A stretch of DNA of 64,000 nucleotides, from assembly GCF_046119375.1 (NCBI RefSeq), contig NW_027362761.1:932790001-932854000 (forward strand), written 5' to 3'. A model generated the notes under the pieces. The model was given only the letters and a program-made list of their open reading frames with translations. It did no database searches and was not told the DNA's origin. Numbering within the stretch: the stretch's first letter is position 1; each line of letters opens with the position of its first letter. This document shows positions 7,326 through 57,672 of the stretch, piece by piece. The translations under genes were made by a program, and so were the position numbers. The DNA comes from Phyllobates terribilis. Lineage: Eukaryota.

Positions 7326-8945
<1,620 letters not shown>

Positions 8946-23119: not shown

Positions 23120-24151
23120 TTAATACTTTGTAGTGCCACCTTTTGCTGCGATTACAGCTGCAAGTCGCTTGGGGTATGTCTCTATCAGTTTTGCACATTG
23201 ACAGGCTGAAATTCTTGCCCATTCTTCCTTGCAAAACAGCTCGAGCTCAGTGAGGTTGGATGGATGGCGTTTGTGAACAGCAGTTTTCAGCTCATTCCAC
23301 ACATTGTCGACTGGATTCAGGTCAGGACTTTGACTTGGCCATTCTAACACCTGGATACGTTTATTTTTGAACCACTCCATTGTAGATTTTGCTTTATGTT
23401 TGGGATCATTGTCTTGTTGGAAGATAAATCTCCGTCCCAGTCTCAGGTCTTTTGCAGACTCGAACAGGTTTTCTTCAAGTATGGTCCTGTATTTGGTCCT
23501 GTATTTGGCTCTGTCCATCTTTCCATCAATTTTAACCATCTTCCCTGTCCCTGCTGAAGAAAAGCAGGCCCAAACCATGTTGCTGCCACCACCATGTTTG
23601 ACAGTGGGGATGGTGTTTTGAGGGTGATGAGCTGTGTTGCTTTTACGCCAAACATATCGTTTTGCATTGTGGCCAAAAAGTTCAATTTTGGTTTCATATG
23701 ACCAGAGCACCTTATTCCACATGTTTGGTGTGTCTCCCAGGTGGCTTGTGGCAAACTTCAAATGAGACTTTTTATGGATATCTTTGAGAAATGGCTTTCT
23801 TCTTGCCACTCTTCCATAAAGGCCAGATTTGTGCAGTGTAGGACTGATTGTTGTCCAATGGACAGACTCTCCCACCTCAGATGTAGATCTCTGCAGTTTA
23901 TCCAGAGTGATCATGGGCCTTTTGGCTGCATCTCTGATCAGTCTTCTCCTTGTTCGAGATGAAAGTTTAGAGGGACAGCCGGGTCTTGGTAGATTTGCAG
24001 TGGTCTGATACTCCTTACATTTCAATATGATCGCTTGCACAGTGCTCCTTGAGATATTAAAAACTTGGGAAATCTTTTTGTATCCAAATTCGGCTTTAAA
24101 CTTTGCCACAACAGTATCTCGGACCTGCCTGGTGTGTTCCTTGGTCTTCAT
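23120..24151 (-). CDS. Tc1 transposase, uninterrupted 343-aa ORF with mutated catalytic triad (element remnant about 23016-24370)
   Basis: MKTKEHTRQVRD...; WSYETK (D to Y), QQDNDPKH, SPDLNPVDN (E to D); 12-bp duplication giving KYRTKYRT; only inner parts of both TIRs remain. Confidence 0.88.
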   Translation of the reverse strand: MKTKEHTRQVRDTVVAKFKAEFGYKKISQVFNISRSTVQAIILKCKEYQTTANLPRPGCPSKLSSRTRRRLIRDAAKRPMITLDKLQRSTSEVGESVHWTTISPTLHKSGLYGRVARRKPFLKDIHKKSHLKFATSHLGDTPNMWNKVLWSYETKIELFGHNAKRYVWRKSNTAHHPQNTIPTVKHGGGSNMVWACFSSAGTGKMVKIDGKMDRAKYRTKYRTILEENLFESAKDLRLGRRFIFQQDNDPKHKAKSTMEWFKNKRIQVLEWPSQSPDLNPVDNVWNELKTAVHKRHPSNLTELELFCKEEWARISACQCAKLIETYPKRLAAVIAAKGGTTKY

Positions 24152-25807
24152 GATGCTCTCTGCACTTGAAACAGAACCCTGAGACTATCACAGAGCAGGT
24201 GCATTTATACAGAGACTTGATTACACACAGGTGGATTCTATTTATCATTACCAGTCATTTAGTACAACATTGGATCATTCAGAGATCCTCACTGAACTTC
24301 TGGAGTTAGTTTGCTGCACTGAAAGTAAAGGGGCCGAATAATATTGCACGCCCCACTTTTCAGTTTTTAATTTTATATCTTTGTGTTTGTAGCCAGAAAT
24401 GTGTCAAAAGGTAGAAAGTTCAAGGAGGCCAAATACTTTCACAAGGCACTGTATATCCTTTGTCGATTGGTAAGGTTTGGTAGTTGTTCTTGTGTCTGTA
24501 AAAGTGGCGTAATACTGCGACAAACTTATTCCCAGAAACCATATGTGAGTCAGAAATGCATGCAGACATATTCTACAGTCTCTTCCCATTCTGTTTCATC
24601 ACGTTCCCACCCATTTCAGCCTTTTTCCTCAGGCCCCCAGACCCCTTTGTAGGGTCCAGCAGAAAATTACTTGCATTTCTCATTGACTTACATTGTACTC
24701 GCTATTCGGAATGAATACACGATTATTACAAAGTACTTGTTATGAGCATAGCGATTACGAATATTACGGTACTCGCTCATCACTATTCATTACCCATTGA
24801 AAGTTGATACTAAGGGATATAAAACAGACTGCCTCTTAGGTCTTGGATCAAGAATGCAATTCCATAATAAAGTATTTCTATTGACTTGGGGCTTATATTA
24901 AAGGTTTTGCATTGACTTCACCAAAATCCAAAGACATCTGTGAGAAGCTGAAATAGTTCAGTTGCAAGAATGTATTGCTCAGTAGTATGCATGGGTTTGA
25001 AAGTCTATGAGAAAATGAGCATGAGCAAATTGTATTAGAGAGGTTCTCAGCATGGAAAAAGTAAAACATACTGCACAGACTCAACCTGTAGGGCATCCTA
25101 GCTGTGAAAGCACATAAAGTATATGTGCAATTTCAGATGATTTTTCAGAACAAGTGTGCTTACATGAAAAATATCAATATTTCTGGCCATTAATCTAGTC
25201 TGGCCATTAATTTAGTCTGCATGTTTAGCCATTTTTGCATATTAACTAAAAGTTTCAACAGTTTCTTTTTATCTTTCTCTGATTCGGTCTCCCCTCAACT
25301 TCTCTCTCTGATTCTGTTTCCCTTCAACTTCTCTCTCCTTTCCTGCCTTTAATCTTTTATAGGTAGAAGATGTAATTTGATAATTTACTGAAGACATATT
25401 TGTAGACATATTTGATTAGTTTTTGAGACTGAATTATTAGTTCAGGGAAAGAAGAATTGACATAGAGTATAGAGTATGTGAGGTAAGAAACATTTTCTCT
25501 ATTAAACTATTACAAAGTTTCTTATCTTTACATGTACTTTTGATATATGCAAAAAATAGATATATACAAATTAAACATAAAAAACAAAGTGCAGTTGCTA
25601 TTTAATACATTTTCCACAGCAGCTTAATATGTCTTTATCTCATAAAAATGCACAATAATTATTTTATTTTTAAAATTTATCTTATTAAGTTTATTTTAAG
25701 TAATGCAACACAATTTTAAACAACAAATTTATTTACTGCTGTCAGAAAAGAAACGAGTTTTACTCATGATTGAAAAGGGATATGTAAATATAATGCAACA
25801 TTATTAT

Positions 25808-28275: not shown

Positions 28276-29407
28276 TGTAGCGTCGGCGTCCCTGCCTCCT
28301 GCTAGGCAGGGACGCTGTTCCCCTCACCTCTCCGCTCCGTGCCCGGCGTCTTCCTCCCGCTCTGCTGGCAGCGTGCACTGCTTCCCGGCCACTGTGCTTA
28401 GGGCGCGTGCGCACTCCCCCTCTCTTAAAGGGGCCGCGCGCGCCGTCCTAAGGAGTCCCCGGCCAATGGCCGGAGGACCTCACCATATATAAGGCACCTC
28501 CTCCAAAATGGAGGTGCCCGAGCAATGTTGTTGCATAGCCTATCACTCTGCTTCAGCCCTCAGGTCCCGTTACCAGATGCCTGCCTGATACTTGTCTATC
28601 TACTTGCATTCCTGCGGTCCGACAGTCTGCCTACCAGCCCTGCCAGTCTGTCTATGGATCTGATTGCCCGCTCACCTGGGAGCGCTCATCTGCTACCTGC
28701 CTGCTAGCCTACCTGGAGGCTCTGCCGTCACGTGCTGTGACCACCTGCCTGTCCAGAGACTCTTACCCGCTCACCTGGGAGCGTCCGCCTGCTACCTGCC
28801 TGCTAGCCTACCTGGAGGCTCTGCCGTCACATGCTGTGACCACCTGCCTGTCCAGAGACTCTTACCCACTCACCTGGGAGCGTCCGCCTGCTACCTGCCT
28901 GCTAGCCTACCTGGAGGCTCTGCCATCACCTGTTGTGACCACCTGCCTGTCCAGAGACTCTTGCCCGCTCACCTGGGAGCGTCCACCTGCTACCTGCCTG
29001 CTAGTCTACCTGGAGGCTTAACCATCACTTGCTGTGACCACCTGCCTGTCCAGAGAGTCTTGCCCGCTCACCTGGGAGCGTCCACCTGCTACCCACCTGC
29101 TAGCCTATCTGGAGGCTTAGCCGTCACTTGCCGTGACCACCCGCCTGTCAAGAGACTGTTCCCGTCATTTGCCGTGACCTCCTGCCCTTCTACCCAGAGA
29201 CTGTCCCCGTCACTTGCCGTGACCTCCTGCCCTTCTACCCAGAGACTGTCCCCGTCACTTGCCGTGACCTCCTGCCCTTCTATCCAGAGACTGTCCCCGT
29301 CACTTGCCATGACTACCTGCCCGCCTACCCTGGGAGCCACCCGCTTCCTTACAAGGACTGCCCCTTTGTATCGTTGCTCAGAGGTTCCACCTCCCAGACC
29401 CGTTACA
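28276..29407 (+). mobile_element. Solo LTR of the same chromovirus family as 47970-59549 (opposite orientation, diverged subfamily)
   Basis: TGTAGCG...CGTTACA; U3, TATA and primer region nearly identical to the array LTRs; internal 99-bp and 45-bp tandem repeats; flanks aattt/atttt (4 of 5 match). Confidence 0.92.
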
Positions 29408-30133
29408 ATTTTCATTACACATGCGCATTATTTTGTGTCATTGCGCATGTACATTTATTTCTTTCTGGTGTTTTTCACATCTTATAAAGAAGCCTGTGGA
29501 ATAAACAACAATGGATAAAATGCCATACAAAGTGTATAAAACATTAGCAAAATAAAAGCCACTGACTCAAAAAGCTGCAATTTAAAAATCACTGAATGTA
29601 GAGCATTTTATACAACTTTTATACATTCTTGACGTTCTGATACTTTTTTTTAAGAATCCAGATTTTCACAATACAAATTTAATTTGCTATAGTGACATGC
29701 TAATAAAACCCTTGACATGCTACAGACAACATTGCAACCACTGGGTAGCAACATATAGGCACACAGCATAAACAACTCTCAGAATATTGCAAAATCATGT
29801 TTTTTCACTTCTAGTAATCTCAGAATATTTTGAGCCAAGAGGAATGATATGGAAGGACTCTGTAGGCAAAAAAATAAACATCTTGTCACAGAAAAAGGAT
29901 TCAAAATACTACGGAAATACAATGTATCAAACCAGCCTACCAACACAGCTCTAAAACTGTTGCTAAATAATTGCTAAATAAAGTGAAATTTAATCTGAAA
30001 GATGATAAATATTATGACACTGAAAATGAACAATGTTGAATAATGAAGAAATCGACAAAATAAAATCAAATTATCACTGGACAACAAATTTTTTCGAATG
30101 TTTTGCTTCCTTGAAAATTGAGGTGATTATGAT

Positions 30134-30479
30134 GCAAATTGCCTCTTCAGAGAAATAGAGGACTTGAACTCTATAGTGCCACCTATTGGAAGCAGCAATC
30201 CTACAAGTCACAATCAACCCTTGCAATATGACTTAGGATAATAGCCAAATCAGAATCTCAATTTGCAGACAAGGTGTTTCAGGCTGTTGGCCCTCGTCAG
30301 TGCAAAGTATGAGAACTGATTTGGCTAGGTGAGAGGCTCTCTGGACTAAGGTCTAAGGGGTAATGTTTCTCTTTGTGGAGAGTGACACACCGGCTCTGGC
30401 TTCAATATGCAAATTGCCTCCTTACTTTGGCATGCCAGAGCCGGTGTATCACAAGGAGAAATGTTACCCCTTAGATATC
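30134..30479 (-). mobile_element. 346-bp hammerhead-containing retro-insertion (retrozyme or Penelope pseudo-LTR-like) with 13-bp TSD
   Basis: AGGTGATTATGAT duplicated at 30121-30133 and 30480-30492; internal inverted repeat; no ORF. Confidence 0.8.
30257..30313 (-). ncRNA. Type I hammerhead ribozyme
   Basis: Minus strand UUUGCA CUGACGA GGGC-CAACA-GCCU GAAA CA-CCU-UG UC^ UGCAAA; all core nucleotides and stems I-III present, stem I extends with UCUCA/UGAGA. Confidence 0.85.
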
Positions 30480-33400
30480 AGGTGATTATGATAAACTCAT
30501 TCAATCTAAGCAGAAATATAATTTTGTATAGTATGTATCACATAGAAATTTTGAGAAACATGAGATTAAGTTTTTTGCTGCTGATTTTAATTTGTACTCA
30601 ATGGCCATTGCATTCCGTAGTAGTGTCCAGCAACAGTCAGCTAGCATTGATGTATTCCAGGAGCCTTGATAACACTTTTTCATTGTGGCAAAATCTTGGT
30701 GAAACCATTTGCCATGTTCTTTATTGATTGCACCAAGATTTTCAGGAAACAATTCCAAATATGAATGCAGAAAATAAATTTTCAATGACATGTTGCACTT
30801 TATCGCTTTGTAAGCTTCAACCAATTCAATGTAATTTGGTGCTCGATAGTTGCCAAGGAAATTCTCAGAAACATCCTTGAAATATTTCCAAGTAATTTTC
30901 TCAGACCCCAGCAGAAGCTCATCCAAGTACTTGACATTCATGATGTGTCGGATTTGTAGACAAATAAAAATGCCCCTCTTAATCTTGGCATCGTTATCCT
31001 TGCGAACGGTTGTCTCAAATAACAAAACCTTCTGCTTCCTTGTTCAATGCTTTCACAAAATTTTTCATCAGCCCAAGTTTTATGTGAAGTGGAGGCAGAA
31101 ATATAATTGCTTGGTTCACAAGTACCTTATGTGTAACATTTTTCTGCCCGGGAGTCAACTGGTTACAGATTGGCCACTTCCTTCTACTGTAACGTGACTG
31201 CTTAGCACTGCTGTACAATTCGCAAATGAAACAGCAGTACTTGGTATATCCGAGCTGCAATCCAAGCAGCAGTGCCACTACTTTTAAATCTGCACAGATA
31301 TTCCAGTTGATGTACTACAACAACAGTTCCATGTTCTCATTAATTTCTTTCATGTGTGCAGGATATCTAACTGGTATTGAAGGATGAACATTACCATTGT
31401 GTAACAAGACAGCATTTAGACTTAACATTGATAAGTCAATAAATAGACGTCACTGTTTTGGCTCGTGCTCACAATCCAAAGCTGCGAACAACCCAACGTT
31501 AGTGCACAAGCACAGGTTGTCAACCTGTTAAAAAAAATGAAATGTGTTACTTCATCTTGGTGGCTTCCAAAGACAGAAACTTTTGTACTAGGTGACAGCA
31601 AATGCCTTCCTTGTAGTTTTGAAGGCATTAACTCTGAATTTTATTTTGACAGATGTAAATCTCGGACCAAGTCATTCAGTTCTGACTGTTTTATAAGATG
31701 AAGGTCACCAGACATGTATGCCTCAAAGTCTGAATCAGCATTGTTCCCTATCTTGGACCCATAGACTGCAACATCTTCATCTGCTGCCTCTTCTAGGCTC
31801 CATGTGGCTTTGGTACTTGAAGAGTGTCATCTTGTGGCACTGGTCTCATAGTTGAAAGCAGAAGAGGATATTCAATATATTTCTTATTCTGAGCAGTGAA
31901 ACCAGAGACATTGGTTAGACAAAAGTAAAGGCCGGTCACATCATCCTTCTGTTGCCGTTATATCATTGGGACAGCAAACGGCATTGACTTGCGAGAACCT
32001 CTTAGCCAACCTCTAAGATTAACAGCACATCTTACACAACAGATGTGAGGAGCCCATGATTTGTCTTTATCACTAAACTTGCATCCAAAGTTCAGCTTTT
32101 AGACTTTCATGATGAGAGCTGTCATGGTGTGTCTTTGAGGCTTAGGCATGTATTCTACGCAAATGTAACAGAAGGTATTGCGACTGTTCCGACACTGACA
32201 AGACATTTTTGCTATATCAGATCATACTGTAGTATTTTATAGCTGCTTAGATTTTAAATAAGTTGCAGAATCTTTGCAAGCAGATTTTACAGCCACTGCA
32301 GGCAGCGTCCAGACATGTCTAGGTGTGCCTAGTCTGTAGCAATTCCACTGAAGTTTTGCAACTTCAATGAAATGCAAGGAATTCATGCCTGTGCTTGCCT
32401 ATAAATTACATAACAGCAATAATTGTGGATAATACATGGAAAGAAACGGTAATTGACAGGAAAATTTAAAAATATTTTTCGTGATCAGCAGCTCAAATTA
32501 CATGAAACACATCTAAAAGTGTATAGAGGCATTCAACTTCCCTCCTTGTTTTCTGTGTGTGAAGAATAAAAAAAAATTACAGTTAAGGTGCTATTATTGT
32601 GGTATATCACAGGTCAATGAATTCACAGACACACTGAGTGACTAGGCAGTTACAGCAGCTCCTTATATCACTTGAATTTTTTAATAATTATTCACAGACT
32701 GAGACTTCCACTCCTACTTTTCAAAATGGTTCACCGCATTACAACACCACAATCAGATCTAAACATTTTTCTTTCCCTATGTGGAATGAGATCCTCACTC
32801 AAATGGAACAACCAGGTGAAGCTACAACTCTTAACTGTATATGTATTTATAGCATGCAGATTCAATAGGGTAGAGCAGGGAGACAAGATCTCCCTGCACT
32901 ACCATTCTCAATTCTGTAGGCTGTAGGCCGCTTTATGCCTGTGGACTAAATTATGGTAGGTTTATGAACTGTTAAAGTGTTGGGCAGGGACAGAATGATG
33001 TGATAACGTCATCACGCCTGAATTCTGATGTTCTGTGCATGCCCTAGTGCAATGACATTACCACGTTGGCCAACTTGTGCCTTATTACGGGCCACCAGAA
33101 TAGGGAAGACCGAGAATATTCTTCTCATCTGTGCCCAAGGCCACAGTGCACGCCGTGATGTCATGACTCTCTAACATTTTGCGCGCTTTAGCAGTACTAA
33201 AGGAACACATTTAAGCACGAACGGTGTATATCAGAAGATGAGATGAGGACCGGACAAGTGACATTGAGTAGCGAAGTGGACAGAGAGATTACCGGTGATG
33301 TGAGTGTAAGGATCTTTTTTATTTTTTACATATTACAGTAATCTCTTAAAACCCCCAAAGCATAATAAGGTATACTAATTTGTCAAAGAATAACTTCTTC

Positions 33401-36989: not shown

Positions 36990-39051
36990 AGGGGTATTCC
37001 CATCTCCAAGATCCTATCCCAATATGTAGTAGGTGTAATAATAGTAATATTAGCAAATATCTCTAATTAGAAATGTAGTATAGTATTTTTGATTCGCTAT
37101 CTCTCTTTCCTCATGTGTAGGCATCGCAGGACCTTAGGTATCCATGGTTACGACCACTAGCAAGTAGCTAACTTACTGTGACTTTATCAGTGGACGTTAC
37201 CATGGATACCTAAAGTCCTGCGGTGCCTGCACATGAGGTAAAGAGACATAGCAAATAAAAAATACTACACAACATTTCTAATTTTAGGTATTTGCTAATA
37301 TTATTATTATTACAACCCCTGGCAAAAATTATGGAATCACCGGGCTCGGATGATGTTCATTCAGTTGTTTAATGTTGTTGAAAAAAAGCAGATCACAGAC
37401 ATGGCACAAAACTAAAGTAATTTCAAATGGCAACTTTAGGGTTTTAAGAAACACTAAAAGAAATCAAGATTAAAAATGTGGTACTCAGTAAGGGTAATTT
37501 TTTTCAGACCAAGCAGAGGGAAAAAATTATGGAATCACTCAATTCTGAGGAAAAAATTATGGAATCACTCTGTAAATTTTCATTTTCAAAACTAACAGCT
37601 ACATCAAATTAGATCTGCTCGTTAGTCTGCATCTAAAAAGGAGTGATCACACCTTGGAGAGCTGTTGCACCAAGTGGACAAGTGGACTGGCATGAATCAT
37701 GGCTCCAACACTAGAGATGTCAATTGAGATATCAAACTCTTAAAAGAAGGTAAATCATCATGCAATGTTGCAAAAGATGTTGGTTATTCACAGTCAGCTG
37801 TGTCTAAAATCTGGACCAAATACAAACAACATGGGAAGGTTGTTAAAGGCAAACATACTGGTAGACCAAGGAAGACATCAAAGCGTCAAGACCGGAAACT
37901 TAAAGCAATATATCTCCAAAACAGGAAATGCACAACAAAACAAATGAGGAACGAATGGGAGGAAACTGGAGTCAATGTCTGTGACCGAACTGTAAGAAAC
38001 CGCCTAAAGGAAATGGGATTTACATACCGAAAAGCTAAACATAAGCCATCATTAACACCTAAACAGAAAAAAACAAGGTTACAATGGGCTAAGGAAAAGC
38101 AATCGTGGACTGTGGATGATTGGATGAAAGTCATATTCAGTGATGAATCGCGAATTTGCATTGGGCACGCTGATGATGCTGGAACTTTTGTTTGGTGCCA
38201 TTCAAATGAGATTTAGAAAGATGACTGCATGAAGAGAACATGCAAATTTCCACAGTCATTAATGATATGGGGCTGCATGTCAGGTAAAGGCACAGGGGAG
38301 TTGGCTGTCATTACTTCTTCAATAAATGCCCAAGTTTACATTGATATTTTGGACAGTTTTCTTATCCCATCAATTGAAAGGATGTGTGGGGATGATGACA
38401 TCATTTTTCAAGATGATAATGCATCCTGCCATATAGCAAATACTGTGAAAAAACTCCTTGAAAGAAGACACATAAGGTCAATGTCATGGCCTGCAAATTG
38501 TCCGGATCTCAATCCAATTGAAAATCTTTGGTGGAAGTTGAAGAAAATGGTTCATGACAAGGCTCCAACCTGCAAAGCTGATCTGGCAACAGCAATCAAA
38601 GAAAGTTGGAGCCAGATTGATGAAGAATATTGTTTGTCACTCATTAAGTCCATGCCTCAGAGACTGCAAGCAGTTATTAAAGCCAAAGGTGGTGCAACAA
38701 AATACTAGTGATGTATTGGAGTGTTCTTTTGTGTGTTTGTTTTTCATGATTCCATAATTTTTCCACAGAATTGAGTGATTCCATAACTGTTTCCCTCTGC
38801 TTAGTCTGAAAAATATTACCCTTACTGAGTACCACATTTTTTTTCTTGATTCCTTTTAGTGTTTCTTAAAGCCCTAAAATTGCCATTTGAAATGACTTTA
38901 GTTTTGTGCCATGTCTGTCATCTGCTTTTTTTCAACAACATTAAACAACTGAATGAACATCCTCCGAGCCCAGTGATTCCATAATTTTTGCCAGGGGTTG
39001 TATTACACCTACTACATTTTGGAATAGGATCTTGGATATGGGAATACCCCT
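36990..39051. mobile_element. T2/Kolobok-type palindromic MITE (TTAA TSD) with a Tc1 inserted in its right arm
   Basis: TTAA|aggggtattccc...gggaatacccct|TTAA; arms are mutually complementary. Confidence 0.88.
37313..39000 (+). mobile_element. Full-length Tc1 (DD34E) with intact TIRs and TA TSD; transposase broken by an N-terminal deletion and one stop
   Basis: TA|caacccctggcaaaaattatgg...ccataatttttgccaggggttg|TA; FSDES; FQDDNASCH...PDLNPIE (34-aa spacing); TAG at 38214-38216. Confidence 0.93.
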
Positions 39052-43854: not shown

Positions 43855-45443
43855 CAGTGGGTACGGAAAGTATTCAGACCCCTTTAAATATTTTACTCTT
43901 TATTTCATTGCAGCCATTTGGCAAATTCTAAAAAGTTCATTTTTTTTCTCATTAATGTACACTCTGCACTCCATCTTGACTGAAAAAAAACAGAAATGTA
44001 GAAATTTTTGAAAATTTATTAAAAAAGAAAAGCTGAAATATCACATGGTCATAAGTATTCAGACCCTTTGCTCAGGCACTCATATATAAGTCACATGCTG
44101 TCCATTTCCTTGTGATGGTTCTCCATCATTGGAGTCCAGCTGTGTTTAACTAAACTGATAGGACTTGATTTGGAAAGGCACACACCTGTCTATATAAGAC
44201 CTCACAGCTCAAAGTGCATGTCAGTCCAAATGAGAATCATGTGCTTAAAAGAACTGTCGAAGGAGCTCAGAGACAGAATTGTAGCAAGGCACAGATCTGG
44301 CCAAGGTTACAAAAGAATTTCTGCATTACTCAAGGTTCCTAAGAGCACATTGGCCTCCATAATCCTTAAATGGAAGAAGTTTGGGACCACCAGAAGTCTT
44401 CCTAGATGTGGCCGTCCAGCCAAACTGAGCAATCGTGGGAGAAGAGCCTTGGTGAGAGAGTTAAAGAAGAACTCAAAGATCACTGTGGATGAGCTCCAGA
44501 GATGCAGTAGGGAGATGGGAGAAAGTTCCACAAAGTCATCGATAAATGCAGCCCTCCACCAGTCGGGCTTTTATGGCAGAGTGGCCCGACAGAAGCCTCT
44601 CCTCAGTGCAAGACATATGAAAGCCAACATAGAGTTTGCTCAAGAACACATGAAGAACTCTCAGACTTTGAGAAATAAGATTCTCTGGTCTGATGAGATG
44701 AAGATAGAACTTTTTGGTGATAATTCTAAGCGGTGTGAGTGGAGAAAATCAGGCACTGATCATCACCTGCCCAATTCAATCCCAACAGTGAAACTTGGTG
44801 ATGGCAGCATCATGCTATGGGGGTGTTTTTCAGCTGCAGAGACAGGATGACTGGTTGCAATTGAAGGAAACATGAATGCGGCCAAGTACAGAGGTATACT
44901 TGATGAAAACCTCTTCCAGAGTGGTCTGGACCTCAGACTTGGCAGAAGGTTCACCTACCGACAAGACAATGACCCTAAGCACACAGCTAAAATAACAAAG
45001 GAGTGGCTTCAGAAAAACTCTGTGACCATTCTTGACTGGCCCAGCCAGAGCCCTGACCCTAATCTAATTGAGCATCTCTGGAGAGACCTGAAAATGGCTG
45101 TCCACCAGCGTCCACCATCCAACCTGACAGAAATGGAGAGGATCTGCAAGGAAGAATGGCAGAGGATCCCCAAATCCAGGTGTGAAAAACTTGTTGCATC
45201 ATTACTAAGAAGACTCATGGCTGAGCAAAGGGTCTGAATACTTATGACCATGTGATATTTCAGCTTTTCTTTTTTAATTGATTTGCAAAAATTTCTACAT
45301 TTCTGCTTTTTTTTCAGTCAAGATGGGGTGCAGAGAGTACATTAATGAGAAAAAAAAATGAACTTTTTAGAATTTACCAAATGGCTGCAATGAAACAAAG
45401 AGTGAAAAATTTAAAGGGGTCTGAATACTTTCCATACCCACTG
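43855..45443 (+). mobile_element. Full-length Tc1 (DD34E) with about 220-bp TIRs and TA TSD; one premature stop and a C-terminal deletion
   Basis: TA|cagtgggtacggaaagtattcagacccc...ctgaatactttccatacccactg|TA; WSDEMKIELFG, RQDNDPKH...SPDPNLIE; TGA at 44848-44850. Confidence 0.93.
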
Positions 45444-48400
45444 TATATGGCTTCGGGGGAGGGAACGAATACAGAGCAAAAGAAACAAGATTATTAAATT
45501 TTATATTTAATCCAAAAGGGAGGCAGTGTTTAAGAAAAATATACAAGATTTTACAGAGGGGACATTACAATACATAAGCAATTACACAAAATAACAAGGA
45601 TTAAAGAAGAGACTTACTAAATGATCAATAGGTGGAGGAGAGACACTCCGCTTGATTTGAGCGTTATCGAACGCGATCCTTCGTTATGATAAACGTATAC
45701 TCCCGGGCAAGAATATTGATCAAACTTCCTTTGGCTCTCTTATGCCGAAGGGGAAGATCGGCCCACACACCCATGTGATGACATCATGTGGGCTTGGGCT
45801 CCACCCTTCATGTTTGTATTAAAGATTTGTTTTTTGGGATAACTTATCACTGGTTTATCCCAGAAGTCCGAAAGCGGTACTATATTTTCTATTATGATTA
45901 TAACTTTCTTAAGCGACCACACATGGCATAGTTCTCATCTGCTATTCTGGTACTTTTGCGCTACAGCTCCACGGAGGGGTTTGCAGTGACAGAAAAATAT
46001 CCCTATCATTCCCTAGCTGACCCTGTCACTAAAAATCTAGGTCTCGTTATTATCGGACGTATAGAACTTTTAGAAGCTTTTAGATATTTTGTATCGGCTC
46101 CAAAAATCCTGCAGTCTGCAGCTGGAGGAATTGTCTTAATTATTTGTGAGAGCCTTTGAACTTAATGAGCTACAGCTTCCTCTCTGTGTCAGAGAAAAAG
46201 ACATTTGCATGCTAAAAAGTCTCTGTAGCACCTCTCTTATGCCAGCATTTGTCTACCTAGACACCTTTCCTGTGTGCTGAGACTTTCATACAGGCAGCTG
46301 CATGCAGTGTTAATTTGCAAAGGAGACACTGGCGATTGTCATCTCTGGACAAATACTATAGGGGAAGGGTGAGAGGGAAAGAGGGGTTTTGTCCTGAGAT
46401 TTACATGGAGACAGCTCTTTTACTGACAAATGGTGGATAAGGGAGTGACGAGCGGAGCTTGGGGGAAATGGCTAATATTCTCTTAATATCGATGACAGGG
46501 GAGAAGAAAATAATTTCAATTTTTCTATGACAATGAGCCATTACTCTCGCTGATATTGATTTGTTTTACACTTCCATATTTCTGAGCATTTGTTTAGGTG
46601 ACCCTCATATTTAGTAGGTCACAGATGCTGGAATTGTGTAGTATCATTGCTGTTATTTATGAAGATTTTGTTCTTTACATCATCCATTTGTTTCTCTGGT
46701 TAATGGTTTTACTTGGGCTATGTGCAATTCAATGTATCTACAGGCAACTACCTGTTAGTATAGAGAATTGTTCATTCTTTTTGCAACAGGTTTTATGGAA
46801 ATCAATGTTGAATGATATGTCCATTTAGGTGGAACCAAGATATTGCATTTTCAAGAATTTAGTCTGAAGGAATTTGAATTCCCATTAGTGGATAACAGTG
46901 ATACATCTATGGCACTTGCCTAATAAATCTCTGTTAAAATACTCACCTGTGGGGAGTGAAACTATTAGTAGTTTTAAGCACACTAAGCACTGTTTTGAGC
47001 ACTTGGCATTTTAATACTCTTTTAATTAATTGAATAAAGGATAATTTTATTAAATCTAATTTTTTGTTCTGATACCCCTTTTTGATAATATTGGATTGCT
47101 ATTTAAACTGCCTCAGCTTCTATATACTCATCTTGGGAACTTAACCGTTAGGAAGTAAAGTACCTAAGACATTTTTGTCACCAATATATATATATTGCTG
47201 CGCAGGATTAGTGAGGTATTGTATTGCTCTGGATAAGAAGTCCCATTTTTAAGTTTTGAAAAATGAGTCTGGAAATTCAAAAAAACTCTATCTGCTTTCA
47301 TGTTTGCAGAGGGGTCAAAGAAATAAAAGATTTTTCTATGTAATGTAAATGGAAGGATTTAAAAAATATTTACATTTTAACGTGTTTACATATGTTATAT
47401 TCAGCATAATATCAAAATTATTCAGAGACTGATTACAACCATGATATCAACCAAGTATTATTTTATCCTTTTTCTAAATAGGATCCCTATCAATGAAGTA
47501 AAATCATGTAAAAACATGTTTATGCTTTTTCTCTTATTTAAAATGAATCAAAACTGTTACATAAACTCTGTAAGTGTTTGATTGTTCTTTCAATGAGCTC
47601 ATTGCATATATTGTTCTATTTGCCTATAATTTTTTTTTTCCTTTAAAAACAGGTTAAAACATGTATTGTATTGACGCATAGACCACGCCAATACAAAAAT
47701 AATTCCTAAGTGAACTGATGCATCAGTAATTCATTAGAAATAGTCAATAAATAGATAAAAGCAAACTATAAGATGCATGCTATTAAGCTGTCAGGGTGAG
47801 TCCATTTGACAATGTAAAGAAAATCGTAGCTATAACAATTTTGGAAGACCATGAAAACCATGGTAAAGGAAGACTGTAGGTTAGTAACAGGCATTCTACC
47901 TCTATGATGTCTATTTGTACTGGTAAGCTAACTCTTCATAGTGAAAATATGCAGTAACATTGTGATAAGTGTAACGGGTCTGGGAGGCGGAACCTCTGAG
48001 CTACTATACAAGGGGGCGGTCCTTGTAAGGGAGCGGGTGGCGACCAGGGAAGACGGGCAGGAAGTCACAGCAGGTGACCGGGACAGTCTCTGAATGAACG
48101 GGCAGATGGTCACGGCAAGTGACCGGGGCAGTCTCTGGATGAATGGGCAGATGGTCACGGCAAGTGACCGGGGCAGTCTCTAGGTAAAGGGTTGGTACGA
48201 CCTGTGGCGGCTGATGATAGACGTGGGCTCCCAGGTGAGCAGGCGAGAGTCTCTGGATGAACGGGTGGTCACAGCATGTGAGGGCGGAGCCTCCAGGAAG
48301 ACCAACAGACAGGCGGCAGATGAGCGCTCCCAGGTGAGCGGGCAGAAGTCTCTGGACAGGCGGGTGGTCACAGCACGTGACGGCAGAGCCTCCTGGTAGG

Positions 48401-48825
48401 CTAGCAGACAGGCAGCAGATGAGCGCTCCCAGGTGAGCGGGCAGGAGTCACTGGACAGGCAGGTGGTCACAGCACGTGACGGCGGAGCCTCCAGGTAGGC
48501 TAGCAGACAGGTAGCAGATGTGTGCTCCCAGGTGAGCAGGCAAGCTGGTCCATAGACAGACTGACAGGAGTTGGAAGGCAGACCGTCGGACCTCAGGCAA
48601 GCAGGCAGGTGGCTGATGTGCGCTCCCAGGTGAGCGAGCAGGCTGGTCCTTAGACAGACTGACAGGAGTAGTAAGGCAGACCGTCGGACCTCAGACTAGC
48701 AGGCAGGTAGCAGATAATCAGGCAGGAATCTGGCAGGATAACTGGCAACGGGACCTGAGGGCTGAAGCAGAGTAGAGAACAGTGCAACAACATTGCTCGG
48801 GCACCTCCATTTTGGAGGAGGTGCC

Positions 48826-51800
48826 TTATATATGGTGAAGTCCTCCGGCCATTGGCCGGGGACTCCTTAGGGCGGCGCGCGTGGCCCCTTTAAGAGGGAG
48901 GGAGAGCGCGCGCGCCCTAAGCACAGTGGCCGGGAAGGAGCGCGCGCTGCCAGCAGAGCGGGAGGAGGACGCCGGGCACGGAGCAAGGAGGTGAGGGGAA
49001 CAGCGTCCCTGCCTAGCAGAGGGCAGGGACGCCGGCGCTACAGTACCCCCCCCTTTAGGCCCCCCCTTTTCTAGGCCAGACAGAAATTTAGCAAGGATAA
49101 GAGGGGCATGGATGTTCTCCCGGGGCTCCCACGTTCTCTCCTCAGGACCAAACCCCTTCCAATCTACTAGAAAAAAGGTCTTTCCTCTTACCCTTTTAGT
49201 GGCAAGAATGTTCTCTACCTCAAACTCGTCCTCAGCAGAAACCGGAGCAGGAGGCGTACCTGTAGACTTGGAAAAAGCGTTAAGTACCACAGGTTTGAGG
49301 AGAGATACATGGAAGGAGTTAGGGATCCGTAAGTTGGCCGGGAGTTTCAATTTATAGGCCACCGGGTTGATCTGACTGATGACCTCCAGGGGGCCGATGA
49401 ACCGAGGCCCTAACTTGTAAGAAGGTATCTTGAGTCGGACATATTTAGATGAGAGCCAGACTTTATCTCCGGGACGAAATTGTGGAGGATCCAGGCGTTT
49501 TTTGTCTGCGTGTCTTTTCATCCGTTCGGACGACTGAAGGAGTGCGGATCAGGTACTCTCCCAAATGGAGGAAAATTTGCTAACGAGAGATTCCGCAGCC
49601 GGGTTGTCCACAGAGGTGGAGACAGGAAAAGGAATCCGAGGATGCTGACCGAAGACTACAAAAAACGGGGATTTGGAGGAGGATTCGCTCTCGTGATTGT
49701 TATAAGAGAACTCGGCCCATGGTAGGAGATCCACCCAGTCAGAATGATGGGCATTAACGAAGTGCCGGAGGTAACTGGTCAGGTTCTGATTGATCCGCTC
49801 CACTTGACCATTGGACTGTGGGTGGTAAGCGGAAGAGAAGTCCAGGGTGACATCTAGCAGTTTACAAGTGGCTCTCCAGAAGCGTGAGGTGAACTGTACC
49901 CCACGATCCGACACGATGTGGAGGGGCAGGCCATGAAGACGAAAGATGTGATGAATAAAGTCTTTAGCTAGCTCGGGTGCAGACGGGAGGCCTGGCAGGG
50001 GAACGAAATGAGCCATCTTGGAGAAGCGGTCAGCGACCACCCAAATGACCGTACAACCGGCAGAGACTGGGAGGTCTGTTATAAAGTCCATTGCTATATG
50101 CTGCCAGGGGGCAGCAGGTACTGGGAGTGGAAGGAGGCGACCGGCTGGCAGATGTCTCGGAACCTTGTTGCGGGCGCAGGACACACAGGCAGAAACAAAG
50201 TCTATTATGTCCTTGTGCAGGGTAGGCCACCAGTAGTGCCGGGTAATAAGCTGGAGGGTCTTTTTCTGACCGGCATGGCCAGCTAGTTTAGACGAGTGAC
50301 CCCAGTGAAGGATCTTCTCCCGATCAGGTACTGATACGAACGTCTTTCCGGGAGGGAGACGATTTAGACTCACGGGAGCCACCTGCATTACTCTGGCGGG
50401 ATCGATGATGTGTTTCGGATCTTCCTCGAGATCAGACACCAGAAAGGATCGAGACAAGGCGTCCGCCTTGACGTTTTTGTCAGCCGGGCGAAAATGAAGA
50501 ACAAAATCAAAGCGAGCAAAAAACAAGGACCACCGGGCTTGGCGCGGGTTAAGTCTCTGGGCATGCTGGAGGTAAGCCAAGTTCTTGTGGTCAGTGTAAA
50601 TTGTTACCGGGTGAAGAGCCCCCTCGAGCAGTTAACGCCACTCCTCCAATGCCAGTTTGATGGCCAATAACTCTCGGTCTACTATGGAATAATTGCGCTC
50701 TGAGGAGGAGAAGAGTTTAGAGAAGAAGCCGCAAGTTACCATCCTCCCGGAAGATGATTTTTGAGTAAGTACCGCTCCGGCTCCAGAGGAGGAGGCGTCA
50801 ACTTCCAGGAAGAACTGCTTGTTGCCGTCCGGGCGATGCAGCACCGGGGCGGAAGAGAAGGCCTGTTTTAAGGAAAGGAAGGCCTCCTCTGCTTCGGGTG
50901 GCCACTCTTTGGGATTAGTACCCTTACGGGTGAGCGCGGAAATTGGAGCAGTCCGGGAAGAGAAGTGTGGTATGAAGAGGCGGTAGTAGTTGGCGAAGCC
51001 CAGGAACCGCTGAATGGCCTTCAACCCCTCCGGTCGAGGCCATTTCTCGATGGCAGACAGTTTCTCTGGATCCATTCGTAGGCCGGTCTGAGAAATAATG
51101 TAGCCCAAAAACGGAAGCGAGGTCTGCTCAAAGAGGCACTTCTCGTATTTAGCGAAGAGGTGATTCTGCCTGAGCCTGAGCAGGACCTGACGAATGTCCC
51201 TCCGGTGAGTCTGGAGATCCGGAGAGAAGACCAAGATGTCGTCCAAGTACACCACTACGCAGGAGTAGAGAAGGTCCCGGAAGATGTCATTGACCAACTC
51301 TTTAAAGACGGCAGGAGTGTTACAGAGGCCAAAGGGCATTACCAGATATTCATAGTGGCCGTCCCGGGTGTTGAATGCCGTCTTCCATTCATCCCCCTGA
51401 CGGATACGAACCAGGTTGTACGCCCCACGGAGGTCCAGTTTGGTGAAGATTCTAGCCCCTCTCAGACGATCAAATAACTCCGGAATGAGCGGAAGGGGGT
51501 ACTTATTCTTCACCGTGATCTGGTTAAGGCCTCTATAGTCTATACAGGGACGGAGAGAGCCATCCTTCTCTTTTACGAAGAAGAAGCCTGCTCCCGCCGG
51601 GGAGGTAGATTTCCGGATGAATCCCCTGGCCAGATTCTCCTCAATATATTCGGACATCGACCGGGTCTCAGCAGCGGATAATGGATAAATACGCCCACGG
51701 GGAGGAGTAGTACCGGGTAACAAGTCAATAGGGCAGTCGTATGGTCTATGAGGGGGTAGTGTCTCTGCTTCCTTTTTATTAAAGACATCAGCATAAGACC

Positions 51801-52311
51801 AATAAGGAATCGGAAGTCCAGGTAGATTAGCTGGGGTAGGAGAAGGACGGACGGGATGGACGGGAACCAGACAGGTCTTATGGCAGTCCTGTCCCCAGCG
51901 AAGGACTTCTCCGGTCTGCCAGTCAAGCACGGGTGCATGTCTTTGGAGCCAAGGTAGACCTAGCAGGAGGGCGTGAGAGAGTCCAGGCAGAACATGAAAG
52001 GAGATACTCTCAGAATGCAGCATTCCCACCTGCAGAGTAATGGATTCGGTGATGAGTTGGATGGGGCGTGGTAAGAGACCCCCATCCACGGCAGCAACAG
52101 ACAAGGGTACAGCCAGAGGTTTGGTGGGGATGTGGTATTTCTCTACCAGGGACTGTGAAATAAGATTCCCGGCTGCTCCAGAGTCCAGTTGGGCTAGTTC
52201 GAAATAACGGTTCTCCCCGCAGACGATTGAAACTGACAGCAGCAGAGATGGAGAGGATTTATTCTTGTCTAGGTCGACCTCTCTGAGCGAACCTAGACAC
52301 AGGCGTTTCCC
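48826..52311 (-). pseudogene. pol: pol of unit 1 (PR-RT-RNaseH-INT-chromodomain) with two in-frame stops
   Basis: LDSGAAG, YLDDILVFS, HGLP...DRGVQF, EFEVENILATKRVRGKTFFLVDWKGFG; TAA at 50632-50634 and TGA at 49549-49551. Confidence 0.93.
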
Positions 52312-53224
52312 GACCTCTCTGGGCAGGCACGGATCCGGTGCTCCTTACTGCCACAGTAGAAGCAGCTCCCCTCGGCACGGCGTAAGTCCTGACGGGTTTT
52401 GACCATCTTGGTCTGGTCGACCTGCATAGGCTCAGGAGAGTGTACCTGGGGAGAGACGGAGGGAGTGACGGGTTTCGTGGAAACCTCCTCTCACGGGCGA
52501 CCTCTTTGGCACGCTCCTGGAACCGTAGGTCAATCCGGGTGGCAAGAGTTATTAGGTCATCGAGAGTGGTAGGAACGTCCCGACCGGCAAGTTCATCTTT
52601 AATACGGCCGGACAGACCCTCCCAGAAGACGGATACCAGAGCGTCGTTATCCCAGGCCAGCTCCGAGGCAAGGGTACGGAACCGTATGGCATATTGGCCC
52701 ACGGTGAGACTTCCCTGACGGAGGCGTAGCAGAGATGATGCGGACGAGGTCTTCCGTCCGGGTTCGTCGAAGACTTTCCGGAAAGCCGTGAGGAAGGCAG
52801 GCAAGTCGGACACCAGGGGGTCTCCTCTCTCCCATAGAGGATTTAGCCAGGCCAGGGCCTCCCCGGTGAGATGGGACATGATGAAGGCAATTTTGGCCCG
52901 GTCGGAGTTAAACTGGTGGGACAATAGTTCAAAGTGCAGGGTGCACTGATTAATGAAGCCCCGAGCCTGGGCGGAGTCGCCTCCGAAGCGAGGAGGTGCA
53001 GAAAGCCGGGGTCCGGGGTAGGATGCCATGGTATTGGTGGGCAGCGGAGCTGCCGGGTTGCGAGTCATGGCACTGGCGGAGGTTGCTGGTGGAGCAGTCA
53101 GAGTGTCCAGGCGAGTATTGACATTCCGCAGGTGACCCAGGATGGACCCCTGTTGGGACCTTTGACGGGACAGTTCATGACACAGGTCCGAGAGCGAGAG
53201 AGCTTGGGTGCCACAGGGTTCCAT
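52259..53224 (-). pseudogene. gag: gag of unit 1 (sushi/PEG10-like capsid), frameshifted by a 19-bp deletion
   Basis: PPRFGGDSAQARGFINQC...AKIAFIMSHLTGEALAW; lacks tgaaaagtaggagctagac present in unit 2. Confidence 0.9.
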
Positions 53225-54150
53225 GGCCCGAGCAAACTGTAACGGGTCTGGGAGGCGGAACCTCTGAGCTACTATACAAGCGGGCGGTCCTTGTAAGGGA
53301 GCGGGTGGCGACCAGGGAAGACGGGCAGGAAGTCACAGCAGGTGACCGGGACAGTCTCTGAATGAACGGGCAGATGGTCACGGCAAGTGACCGGGGCAGT
53401 CTCTGGATGAACGGGCAGATGGTCACGGCAAGTGGCCGGGGCAGTCTCTGGATGAACGGGCAGATGGTCACGGCAAGTGGCCGGGGCAGTCTCTGGATGA
53501 ACGGGCAGATGGTCACGGCAAGTGACCAGGGCAATCTCTAGGTAAAGGGTTGGTACGACCTGTGGCGGCTGATGATAGACGTGGGCTCCCAGGTGAGCAG
53601 GCGAGAGTCTCTGGATGAACGGGTGGTCACAGCATGTGACGGCGGAGCCTCCAGGAAGACCAACAGACAGGCGGCAGATGAGCGCTCCCAGGTGAGCGGG
53701 CAGAAGTCTCTGGACAGGCGGGTGGTCACAGCACGTGACGGCAGAGCCTCCAGGTAGGCTAGCAGACAGGCAGCAGATGAGCTCTCCCAGGTGAGCGGGC
53801 AGGAGTCACTGGACAGGCAGGTGGTCACAGCACGTGACAGCGGAGCCTCCAGGTAGGCTAGCAGACATTTAGCAGATGTGTGCTCCCAGGTGAGCAGGCA
53901 AGCTGGTCCATAGACAGACTGACAGGAGTTGGAAGGCAGACCGTCGGACCTCAGGCAAGCAGGCAGGTGGCTGATGTGCGCTCCCAGGTGAGCGAGCAGG
54001 CTGGTCCTTAGACAGACTGACAGGAGTAGTAAGGCAGACCGTCGGACCTCAGACTAGCAGGCAGGTAGCAGATAATCAGGCAGGAATCTGGCAGGATAAC
54101 TGGCAACGGGACCTGAGGGCTGAAGCAGAGTAGAGAACAGTGCAACAACA

Positions 54151-54190
54151 TTGCTCGGGCACCTCCATTTTGGAGGAGGTGCCTTATATA
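54151..54190 (-). promoter_or_regulatory. LTR TATA box and predicted transcription start / self-primer
   Basis: TATATAA at 54190-54184; GCCCGAGCAA begins 30 nt downstream and is complementary to the PBS at 53226-53237. Confidence 0.75.
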
Positions 54191-54224
54191 TGGTGAAGTC
54201 CTTCGGCCATTGGCCGGGGACTCC

Positions 54225-57200
54225 TTAGGACGGCGCGCGTGGCCCCTTTAAGAGGGAGGGAGAGCGCGCGCGCGCCCTAAGCACAGTGGCCGGGAAGGAG
54301 CGCGCGCTGCCAGCAGAGCGGGAGGAGGACGCCGGGCACGGAGCAAGGAGGTGAGGGGAACAGCGTCCCTGCCTAGCAGAGGGCAGGGACGCCGGCGCTA
54401 CAGTACCCCCCCCTTTAGGCCCCCCCTTTTTTAGGCCAGACAGAAATTTAGCAAGGATAAGAGGGGCATGGATGTTCTCCCGGGGCTCCCACGTTCTCTC
54501 CTCAGGACCAAACCCCTTCCAATCTACTAGAAAAAAGGTCTTTCCTCTTACCCTTTTAGTGGCAAGAATGTTCTCTACCTCAAACTCGTCCTCAGCAGAA
54601 ACCGGAGCAGGAGGCGTACCTGTAGACTTGGAAAAAGCGTTAAGTACCACAGGTTTGAGGAGAGATACATGGAAGGAGTTAGGGATCCGTAAGTTGGCCG
54701 GGAGTTTCAATTTATAGGCCACCGGGTTGATCTGACTGATGACCTCCAGGGGGCCGATGAACCGAGGCCCTAACTTGTAAGAAGGTATCTTGAGTCGGAC
54801 ATATTTAGATGAGAGCCAGACTTTATCTCCGGGACGAAATTGTGGAGGATCCAGGCGTTTTTTGTCTGCGTGTCTTTTCATCCGTTCGGACGACTGAAGT
54901 AGTGCGGATCAGGTACTCTCCCAAATGGAGGAAAATTTGCTAACGAGAGATTCCGCAGCCGGGTTGTCCACAGAGGTGGAGACAGGAAAAGGAATCCGAG
55001 GATGCTGACCGAAGACTACAAAAAACGGGGATTTGGAGGAGGATTCGCTCTCGTGATTGTTATAAGAGAACTCGGCCCATGGTAGGAGATCCACCCAGTC
55101 AGAATGATGGGCATTAACGAAGTGCCAGAGGTAACTGGTCAGGTTCTGATTGATCCGCTCCACTTGACCATTGGACTGTGGGTGGTAAGCGGAAGAGAAG
55201 TCCAGGGTGACATCTAGCAGTTTACAAGTGGCTCTCCAGAAGCGTGAGGTGAACTGTACCCCACGATCCGACACGATGTGGAGGGGCAGGCCATGAAGAC
55301 GAAAGATGTGATGAATAAAGTCTTTAGCTAGCTCGGGTGCAGACGGGAGGCCTGGCAGGGGAACGAAATGAGCCATCTTGGAGAAGCGGTCAGCGACCAC
55401 CCAAAATGACCGTACAACCGGCAGAGACTGGGAGGTCTGTTATAAAGTCCATTGCTATATGCTGCCAGGGGGCAGCAGGTACTGGGAGTGGAAGGAGGCG
55501 ACCGGCTGGCAGATGTCTCGGAACCTTGTTGCGGGCGCAGGACACACAGGCAGAAACAAAGTCTATTACGTCCTTGTGCAGGGTAGGCCACCAGTAGTGC
55601 CGGGTAATAAGCTGGAGGGTCTTTTTCTGACCGGCATGGCCAGCTAGTTTAGACGAGTGACCCCAGTGAAGGATCTTCTCCCGATCAGGTACTGATACGA
55701 ACGTCTTTCCGGGAGGGAGACGATTTAGACTCACGGGAGCCACCTGCATTACTCTGGCGGGATCGATGATGTGTTTCGGATCTTCCTCGAGATCAGACAC
55801 CAGAAAGGATCGAGACAAGGCGTCCGCCTTGACGTTTTTGTCAGCCGGGCGAAAATGAAGAACAAAATCAAAGCGAGCAAAAAACAAGGACCACCGGGCT
55901 TGGCGCGGGTTAAGTCTCTGGGCATGCTGGAGGTAAGCCAAGTTCTTGTGGTCAGTGTAAATTATTACCGGGTGAAGAGCCCCCTCGAGCAGTTAACGCC
56001 ACTCCTCCAATGCCAGTTTGATGGCCAATAACTCTCGGTCTCCTATGGAATAATTGCGCTCTGAGGAGGAGAAGAGTTTAGAGAAGAAGCCGCAAGTTAC
56101 CATCCTCCCGGAAGATGATTTTTGAGTAAGTACCGCTCCGGCTCCAGAGGAGGAGGCGTCAACTTCCAGGAAGAACTGCTTGTTGCCGTCCGGGCGATGC
56201 AGCACCGGGGCGGAAGAGAAGGCCCGTTTTAAGGAAAGGAAGGCCTCCTCTGCTTCGGGTGGCCACTCTTTGGGATTAGTACCCTTACGGGTGAGCGCGG
56301 AAATTGGAGCAGTCCGGGAAGAGAAGTGTGGTATGAAGAGGCGGTAGTAGTTGGCGAAGCCCAGGAACCGCTGAATGGCCTTCAACCCCTCCGGTCGAGG
56401 CCATTTCTCGATGGCAGACAGTTTCTCTGGATCCATTCGTAGGCCGGTCTGAGAAATAATGTAGCCCAAAAACGGAAGCGAGGTCTGCTCAAAGAGGCAC
56501 TTCTCGTATTTAGCGAAGAGGTGATTCTGCCTGAGCCTGAGCAGGACCTGACGAACGTCCCTCCGGTGAGTCTGGAGATCCGGAGAGAAGACCAAGATGT
56601 CGTCCAAGTACACCACTACGCAGGAGTAGAGAAGGTCCCGGAAGATGTCATTGACCAACTCTTGAAAGACGGCAGGAGCGTTACAGAGGCCAAAGGGCAT
56701 TACCAGATATTCATAGTGGCCGTCCCGGGTGTTGAATGCCGTCTTCCATTCATCCCCCTGACGGATACGAACCAGGTTGTACGCCCCACGGAGGTCCAGT
56801 TTGGTGAAGATTCTAGCCCCTCTCAGACGATCAAATAACTCCGGAATGAGCGGAAGGGGGTACTTATTCTTCACCGTGATCTGGTTAAGGCCTCTATAGT
56901 CTATACAGGGACGGAGAGAGCCATCCTTCTTTTTTACGAAGAAGAAGCCTGCTCCCGCCGGGGAGGTAGATTTCCGGATGAATCCCCTGGCCAGATTCTC
57001 CTCAATATATTCGGACATTGACCGGGTCTCAGCAGCGGATAATGGATAAATACGCCCACGGGGAGGAGTAGTACCGGGTAACAAGTCGATAGGGCAGTCG
57101 TATGGTCTATGAGGGGGTAGTGTCTCTGCTTCCTTTTTATTAAAGACATCAGCATAAGACCAATAAGGAATCGGAAGTCCAGGTAGATTAGCTGGGGTAG

Positions 57201-57672
57201 GAGAAGGACGGACGGGATGGACGGGAACCAGACAGGTCTTATGGCAGTCCTGTCCCCAGCGAAGGACTTCTCCGGTCTGCCAGTCAAGCACGGGTGCATG
57301 TCTTTGGAGCCAAGGTAGACCTAGCAGGAGGGCGTGAGAGAGTCCAGGCAGAACATGAAAGGAGATACTCTCAGAATGCAGCATTCCCACCTGCAGAGTA
57401 ATGGATTCGGTGATGAGTTGGATGGGGCGTGGTAAGAGACCCCCATCCACGGCAGCAACAGACAAGGGTACAGCCAGAGGTTTGGTGGGGATGTGGTATT
57501 TCTCTACCAGGGACTGTGAAATAAGATTCCCGGCTGCTCCAGAGTCCAGTTGGGCTAGTTCGAAATAACGGTTCTCCCCGAAGACGATTGAAACTGACAG
57601 CAGCAGAGATGGAGAGGATTTATTCTTGTCTAGGTCGACCTCTCTGAGCGAACCTAGACACAGGCGTTTCCC
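54225..57672 (-). pseudogene. pol: pol of unit 2 with the same two stops plus a 1-bp insertion in integrase
   Basis: TAA at 55993-55995, TGA at 54909-54911; cccaaaatgacc at about 55400 versus cccaaatgacc in unit 1. Confidence 0.93.
57604..57672 (-). promoter_or_regulatory. -1 ribosomal frameshift cassette (G GGA AAC plus stem/pseudoknot); second copy at about 52243-52311
   Basis: Heptamer is in the gag frame; the -1 frame is open into protease; 5-nt spacer then 9-bp stem UGUCUAGGU/ACCUAGACA. Confidence 0.85.

Follow-up and report, generated by a model that had tools for sequence, protein, structure and literature searches.

We examined a 64,000-nucleotide (nt) stretch of the Phyllobates terribilis genome (contig NW_027362761.1, positions 932,790,001 to 932,854,000; hereafter the window), which holds a 346-base pair (bp) insert with a hammerhead ribozyme at 30134-30479. 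Judged by its sequence, the insert is a non-long terminal repeat (non-LTR) retrozyme of the amphibian type, an already known kind of element. It is a decayed copy of a family with a 332-nt unit, and was likely inserted by the reverse transcriptase (RT) and GIY-YIG endonuclease of a Penelope-like element (PLE) acting in trans. The insert lies between 13-bp direct repeats at 30121-30133 and 30480-30492, read on the plus strand. Among 14 paralogous loci of the surrounding DNA transposon, all eight that span the site (8/8) lack the insert and carry the 13-mer motif once, letter-perfect in five. The 346-bp insertion and its 13-bp target-site duplication (TSD) are therefore real. No long open reading frame (ORF) was found in the insert.

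Alignment to the 332-nt family consensus gave the order of parts: unit 1-278, a 48-nt deletion, 327-332 and 1-14 of a second unit, GCCTC, and an inverted arm from 296 to ~226. The first arm (30132-30400, unit 1-278) has the minus strand as its RNA sense, is 91% identical to a family copy and has an 11-nt deletion near 30221. Its RNA-sense 3' end is at site A (unit 320-6), the main end of the family, which coincides with the octamer ATGCAAAT and has the final 2 nt of the left TSD in common. Beyond the deletion of unit 279-326, the start of a second tandem unit occupies 30401-30420 on the minus strand, and the 5-nt microhomology GCCTC (30416-30420) joins it to the second arm (30416-30479, plus strand), which has a 7-nt deletion and its outer end at site B (unit 218-240), ~107 nt from A. 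The copy is 1.04 units long plus this inverted B arm. An earlier note on this DNA had described the bounding 13-bp repeat, the lack of an ORF, a 14-bp direct repeat at 30132 and 30407 and an inverted repeat of about 45 bp. All are present, the first verified as a TSD by the empty paralogues. On this alignment, the 14-bp repeat is the start of the second tandem unit after the 48-nt deletion, and the inverted repeat (30352-30377/30450-30475, 88%; 30382-30400/30434-30452, 95%) is the overlap of the two arms, the second beginning at the fixed site B.

The host is a broken DNA-transposon remnant on the minus strand (30075-31990), recognized from a CACTG terminus at 30075 and from homologous loci; the opposite end was not placed. 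The insert sits ~46 bp inside the CACTG terminus, 3' of the transposase remnant. The earlier note had called the host a Chapaev remnant. The DNA-transposon part of that claim stands, and the name was not confirmed: we take the host to be Chapaev-like from its motifs, a Pfam search of its transposase returned no family and a homologue search returned six homologues, none informatively named. The retrozyme family has also inserted independently into another copy of this transposon (L033:1078-1404), ~80 bp from the window copy's site; that insertion started at B and is flanked by an 8-bp TSD.

The hammerhead ribozyme and its family

The type I hammerhead domain, with an extended stem I, lies on the minus strand at 30243-30326. 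Its core is at 30300-30294 and 30280-30277, and the predicted cut falls between 30268 and 30267, as the earlier note had it. From 30313 to 30257 the minus strand includes CUGACGA-GGGC-CAACA-GCCU-GAAA-CAC-CUU-GUC, and stem I (6+5 bp) is prolonged by a further 12-bp stem. This is the only hammerhead in the copy. A 101-nt sequence containing the domain folds much better than its shuffles (z = -7.0); its lowest-energy fold pairs the core away and forms no hammerhead. A scan with Rfam, one of the checks proposed earlier, returned no hammerhead match at E ≤ 1, only two chance matches. The core and stems are complete, and they are canonical in the family.

The window copy differs from the consensus by C>U at 30281 (pair 10.1-11.1), G>U at 30272 (in the near-palindrome of helix III) and one change at 30242. 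The predicted self-duplex of helix III falls from -7.4 kcal/mol in the consensus to -0.1 in the window copy, and pairing of CUGACGAGG with the mutated strand raises the predicted energy needed to open the core from 3.4 to 7.9 kcal/mol. The copy is thus predicted to be crippled by two ribozyme changes and to misfold, and is an ordinary, probably inactive one. It had been suggested that its G-U pair at 10.1-11.1 reflects CpG decay and may slow it. Crippling is indeed what the folds predict, with G>U at 30272 predicted to do more damage than the G-U pair. A change of C11.1 to U is a product of CpG decay. U occurs at 11.1 in 30 of 119 units. We rejected an inherited subfamily variant, as the change shows no linkage to any of 12 other polymorphic sites, and tandem units often disagree at this position; the pattern across units indicates recurrent CpG decay.

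The ribozyme core is near-invariant across ~118 units. At its CpG sites, the essential G8 and G12 were mutated 4 and 7 times and their CpG partners 27 and 30 times. Six other CpG sites were symmetric (73 versus 78 mutations), a seventh having been excluded as a subfamily marker. Because units inside the same insertion are interdependent, the real sample is smaller than these counts suggest. Covariation, another proposed check, is found between this family and a sister family with a 316-nt unit. The fourth stem II pair is C-G in the 332-nt family (partner G in 97 of 100 among the matches listed) and G-C in the sister family (partner C in 87 of 100 among the matches listed), by-eye tallies of a difference that counts as one evolutionary event. 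A second compensatory change, U-A to C-G, is in the extended stem I. Together these patterns indicate that the ribozyme structure is under selection in the family. A candidate conserved hairpin around site A was weak, with one compensatory base pair, several broken pairs above it and another predicted fold in the sister family.

In the 10.57-Gb genome, 40 of 4,268 candidates were scored, and these gave 122 places matching the insert. Exact genomic matches number 2,831 for a 28-mer of the unit, and the hammerhead pattern has 2,025 matches; each reversed control gave 0. The units occur in tandem or partial-tandem copies, in arrays of up to six, and show a canonical type I hammerhead, a tandem unit within 150-450 bp, no coding capacity, no LTR structure and TSDs longer than 4 bp (7-17 bp), which are the features of retrozymes. 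The earlier description of a small hammerhead RNA family holds. The sister family (consensus of 17 loci; 2,517 pattern matches) has the same base at 265 of 315 aligned positions; its sampled loci (L245-L264) are 81-93% identical to their own consensus, and it is older. Both families carry ATGCAAAT at unit 1-8, at site A. The unit also has what we take to be a box resembling a proximal sequence element. Newt satellite 2 reportedly has an internal promoter of small nuclear RNA (snRNA) type, and by analogy the retrozyme unit may be transcribed from an internal promoter. More diverged relatives (70-79%) are present in loci L061 and L123. Contigs of four runs labelled as four other organisms (run type unrecorded) also contain relatives, most of them 85-99% alike, whose loose ends fall at A and B as well; in two of these four runs, both sides of a stem I A-U to G-C change occur at matching depths, the linkage of the two sides not being seen.

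Several loci have unusual arrangements. The array at L265:1209-3572 comprises six units and an inverted one; its unit variants are mosaic, and one of its ends is at B, the other at A. One unrelated repeat adjoins the 5' ends of two different retrozyme copies (L109:2159-3040 and L112:997-1497), making a 385-bp inverted repeat in L109. At L055:1399-1926, a copy is centred in a perfect genomic fold-back whose flanks are mirror images.

Axolotl Rtz331 and Rtz353 and newt satellite 2 share with the 332-nt family a tandem unit of ~330 nt, no ORF and thousands of copies, a type I hammerhead with 6-bp stem I, 4-bp stem II and a weak, near-palindromic helix III, TSDs longer than 4 bp and two families per genome (PMC7229834). 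Helix III has 3 bp and a 3-nt loop here, versus 1 or 2 bp and a tetraloop in axolotl. The likeness is one of features: expression and circular RNA were shown for those retrozymes, whereas the present family is described from sequence alone. Palindromic helix III has been tied to dimeric cleavage in amphibian hammerheads (PMC7229834, PMC4209133).

Integration footprint and RNA template

We scored ends in two samples. Best-match searches gave 82 insertions and are biased, so we also took a positional sample, in which the first 100 pattern matches along contig 1 gave 84 loci and 83 scored insertions, or 75 after removal of eight likely segmental duplicates. The B window was broadened by one base for the 75-insertion analysis, and one array extending beyond its locus end (L265) was treated apart. 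RNA-sense 3' ends are concentrated at the two sites: 72 at A, 24 at B and 12 elsewhere among 108 in the top-hit sample, and 67, 19 and 15 among 101 in the positional sample before duplicate removal. The 5' ends are scattered, with 58 of 65 outside A and B (positional sample). They do not mark the ribozyme cut (4/56 near it in the top-hit sample, P = 0.28; 4/59 in the positional sample), and an apparent surplus of 5' ends that the top-hit loci showed at A and B (12/56, P = 0.045) did not hold in the positional sample (7/65).

Inverted insertions make up 17 of the 75 positional and 26 of the 82 top-hit insertions, and all (17/17 and 26/26) have their 3' ends outward. Eleven of the 17 positional inversions pair A with B, none pairs A with A and six have another end. 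Simple copies in this sample start at A in 44 cases, at B in 7 and elsewhere in 7, giving an excess of A+B among inversions (Fisher test, P = 6 × 10−8). The inverted, truncated ends of Penelope type that the earlier note inferred from one copy thus recur across the family. TSDs of 7-14 bp flank 31 of 75 insertions, compared with 1 of 60 random boundaries. Over 44 primed ends, microhomology with the template averages 1.6 nt (1-2 nt). The target DNA is somewhat rich in AT (69% versus 60%), and the listed 3' ends have no poly(A) or simple-repeat tail. The sister family has 14 ends at A, 5 at B and 6 elsewhere among 25, eight of eight inversions with 3' ends outward (two A+B) and TSDs in only 3 of 17.

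Two accounts of these ends can be set against insertion by PLE enzymes. Spread at the DNA level, by transposition like that of a miniature inverted-repeat transposable element (MITE) or as circular satellite DNA with the hammerhead as a passenger, would suit an insert with an internal inverted repeat inside a DNA-transposon remnant, and units are mosaic in some arrays. We consider it very improbable. There are neither fixed termini nor a fixed TSD length, host paralogues without the insert exist, compensatory changes keep the ribozyme stems, and the polarity of the ends, with fixed 3' and scattered 5' ends following the ribozyme strand, largely refutes it. Nor were copies confined to MITEs moved by terminal inverted repeats and a DDE transposase with fixed short TSDs, a case the earlier note had raised: ends vary, and TSDs are 7-17 bp. 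Variable TSDs, 5' truncation and inversions are also features of LINEs (long interspersed nuclear elements), and a LINE of L1, RTE or CR1 type could have moved the retrozyme, with inversions made by L1-style twin priming. The 7-17-bp TSDs, the AT-rich targets and the short microhomology at primed ends agree with this, which we nonetheless hold to be improbable, since the listed 3' ends lack a poly(A) or simple-repeat tail. The second primer is at one fixed site that the first arm usually passes, which differs from L1 twin priming, and the one-sided tail rule is also seen in this genome's PLEs.

The copies also bear on the RNA that was inserted. Among A-started arms, 41 of 59 run through the ribozyme cut site and four stop within 8 nt of it, and 34 of the 75 positional insertions exceed one unit, continuing as more unit. 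A cleaved linear monomer was therefore not the usual template, which was probably a multimeric or circular RNA. Subfamily markers are common to tandem units (301/336, expected 208) and to inverted arms (139/155, expected 96); 495 of 523 rare variants are unshared. We tried a monomeric circle as sole template. In L212 a private change is common to all three units, but units differ within L203 (alternating), L206, L009 and L265, so a single monomeric circle is insufficient without template switching. To judge from these copies, multimeric RNA, linear or circular, fits best. The earlier note's self-cleaving RNA family with Penelope-type ends, mobilised in trans, is supported; its route through circular RNA has an equal, as uncleaved linear multimers would fit the copies as well as circles.

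Penelope-like elements as the probable mobilising partner

An inverted copy and a one-sided tail are hallmarks of PLEs (PMC8557442, PMC3846280). PLE insertions of the endonuclease-bearing (EN+) type resemble those of the retrozyme in their partial tandems, inverted 5'-truncated copy, tail at one end and TSDs of ~8-14 bp (PMC8557442, PMC3846280). In the biochemistry of PAc, reverse transcription begins at two internal start sites, both strands are extended and uncleaved RNA is the main template (PMC11167929), as proposed for the retrozyme. Within the same genome, we saw GIY-YIG matches at 30 loci of 4,370 candidates, in RT-linked ORFs of elements that we assume to be Neptune-like. In one PLE family with 10 inverted pairs, eight have one short end and one tail end, one is a duplication and one is unclear; the tail end is extended by ~80-90 nt, and the flanking direct repeats are 8-18 bp. 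The same end pattern in the retrozyme copies and the PLEs of one genome indicates that PLE enzymes likely did the insertion. The retrozyme has the inverted 5'-truncated copy, the one-sided tail and the variable TSD of a PLE. It differs from PLEs in having no ORF (and so no RT and GIY-YIG frame), a closed tandem unit, a tail of ~107 rather than 30-40 nt, and a canonical rather than minimal hammerhead.

Loci L085:1925-2190 and L266-L300 represent a young PLE family whose pseudo-LTR (pLTR) has a degenerate motif like a minimal hammerhead, with a palindromic helix III segment. Its tail is ~80-90 nt, and it includes many insertions that are large and inverted, between flanking repeats of 8-18 bp.

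PLE stubs, including inverted pairs in the same genome, have exactly this footprint (PMC8557442), and the unit could instead be the pLTR of an autonomous PLE whose copies are 5'-truncated stubs rather than a separate retrozyme. Autonomous PLE copies can be rare, and the GIY-YIG loci seen were 30 of the 4,370 candidates. We find this unlikely: copies that exceed one unit continue into another unit (up to six, in L265), 5' ends do not pile up at the unit boundary (2/65 at A), and no common upstream flank is seen except where flanks are duplicated or filled with repeats. None of 121 simple insertions has a sense PLE ORF joined to its 5' end; the sole sense match near one is 700 nt away, behind its own pLTR. 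The hammerhead is also canonical and not of the minimal PLE type (PMC4209133). Apparent protein matches to a PLE partner beside copies were other repeats or independent insertions.

Several points weigh against insertion of the retrozyme by PLE enzymes. Save for one independent insertion, the unit has no homology to the 30 GIY-YIG loci, and no autonomous partner was found there; the ribozyme-like motif at the PLE ends sampled is another, minimal one. The ~107-nt tail exceeds both the 30-40 nt published and the ~80-90 nt of the one PLE family measured. A TSD was not detectable in 44 of 75 insertions. A+A inversions number 4 of 26 in the top-hit sample (one a fold-back duplication); A+A palindromes might be lost preferentially, and B+B inversions are harder to catch with an A-side pattern. 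For PAc, microhomology at the ends was not needed and start sites did not differ between strands in vitro, whereas retrozyme inversions pair A with B (PMC11167929). Even the consensus hammerhead is not the lowest-energy fold (a cost of 3.4 kcal/mol), and in vitro, eight of nine retrozyme dimers from Xenopus failed to cleave (10.64898/2026.07.22.740005).

With these points included, insertion by PLE enzymes in trans would have run as follows. The endonuclease would make staggered nicks 13 bp apart. One nicked strand would prime at internal site A and copy one unit plus 14 nt, through the ribozyme cut; the other would prime at site B and copy ~70 nt; and the two complementary DNAs would join by the 5-nt microhomology. 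Multimeric transcripts of the family would be cleaved by its hammerhead, which would probably act as a dimer by way of the palindromic helix III. We infer the PLE enzymes in trans, the one start site per strand and the dimeric cleavage. Going further, we tentatively propose, with a little less than even confidence, that a PLE RT dimer starts from two internal sites that are fixed both in position and in pairing, with one site per nicked strand. The retrozyme would have captured this machinery without shared pLTR sequence, through a 332-nt RNA, multimeric or circular, that brings A and B sites of its own and perhaps also an snRNA-type promoter.

PLEs were named as candidate movers of animal retrozymes in 2020 by Cervera & de la Pena (PMC7229834), whose available text describes no fixed ends, inversions or tail. 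A 2026 preprint (Li, Clavereau, Pollet; 10.64898/2026.07.22.740005) proposes vertebrate retrozymes as non-autonomous PLE derivatives and states that the mobilisation mechanism is still to be worked out. It concludes on the same partner and reports an amphibian mean unit of 316 bp and mostly short arrays, from co-occurrence and pLTR homology, and proposes local tandem amplification after PLE insertion. Here the evidence is instead a footprint, single TSD-flanked insertions contain multimers and homology to a pLTR was not found. In the literature on retrozyme ends, tails and twin priming, we found no description of this footprint; the preprint's supplements might list the family.

Elsewhere in the window, two near-identical Gypsy-type LTR retrotransposon copies lie in tandem on the minus strand (47700-59500) with a middle LTR in common and long gag, pol and integrase/chromodomain frames; the names come from reading the translations by eye. 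LTR-like sequence related to this pair, with 45-bp tandem repeats, is at ~28500-29400. Five transposase remnants, presumably Tc1/mariner-like, are at 1801-2406, 7651-8334, 23120-24184 (an unbroken 354-amino acid frame), 37728-38708 and 44116-44850.

If the paired start sites are correct, the one-sided Penelope tail would be the distance between them, heterogeneous multimeric RNA would give rise to retrozyme arrays in a single step at insertion, and ribozyme cleavage would be unnecessary for integration. The footprint of ~150 insertions, with its match to PLEs of the same genome, bears on which enzyme moves animal retrozymes and from what kind of RNA. It adds direct, testable support for the mobilisation of retrozymes by PLEs, and the family offers an RNA that is short and defined, in which two start sites are predicted, for tests with purified PLE protein.

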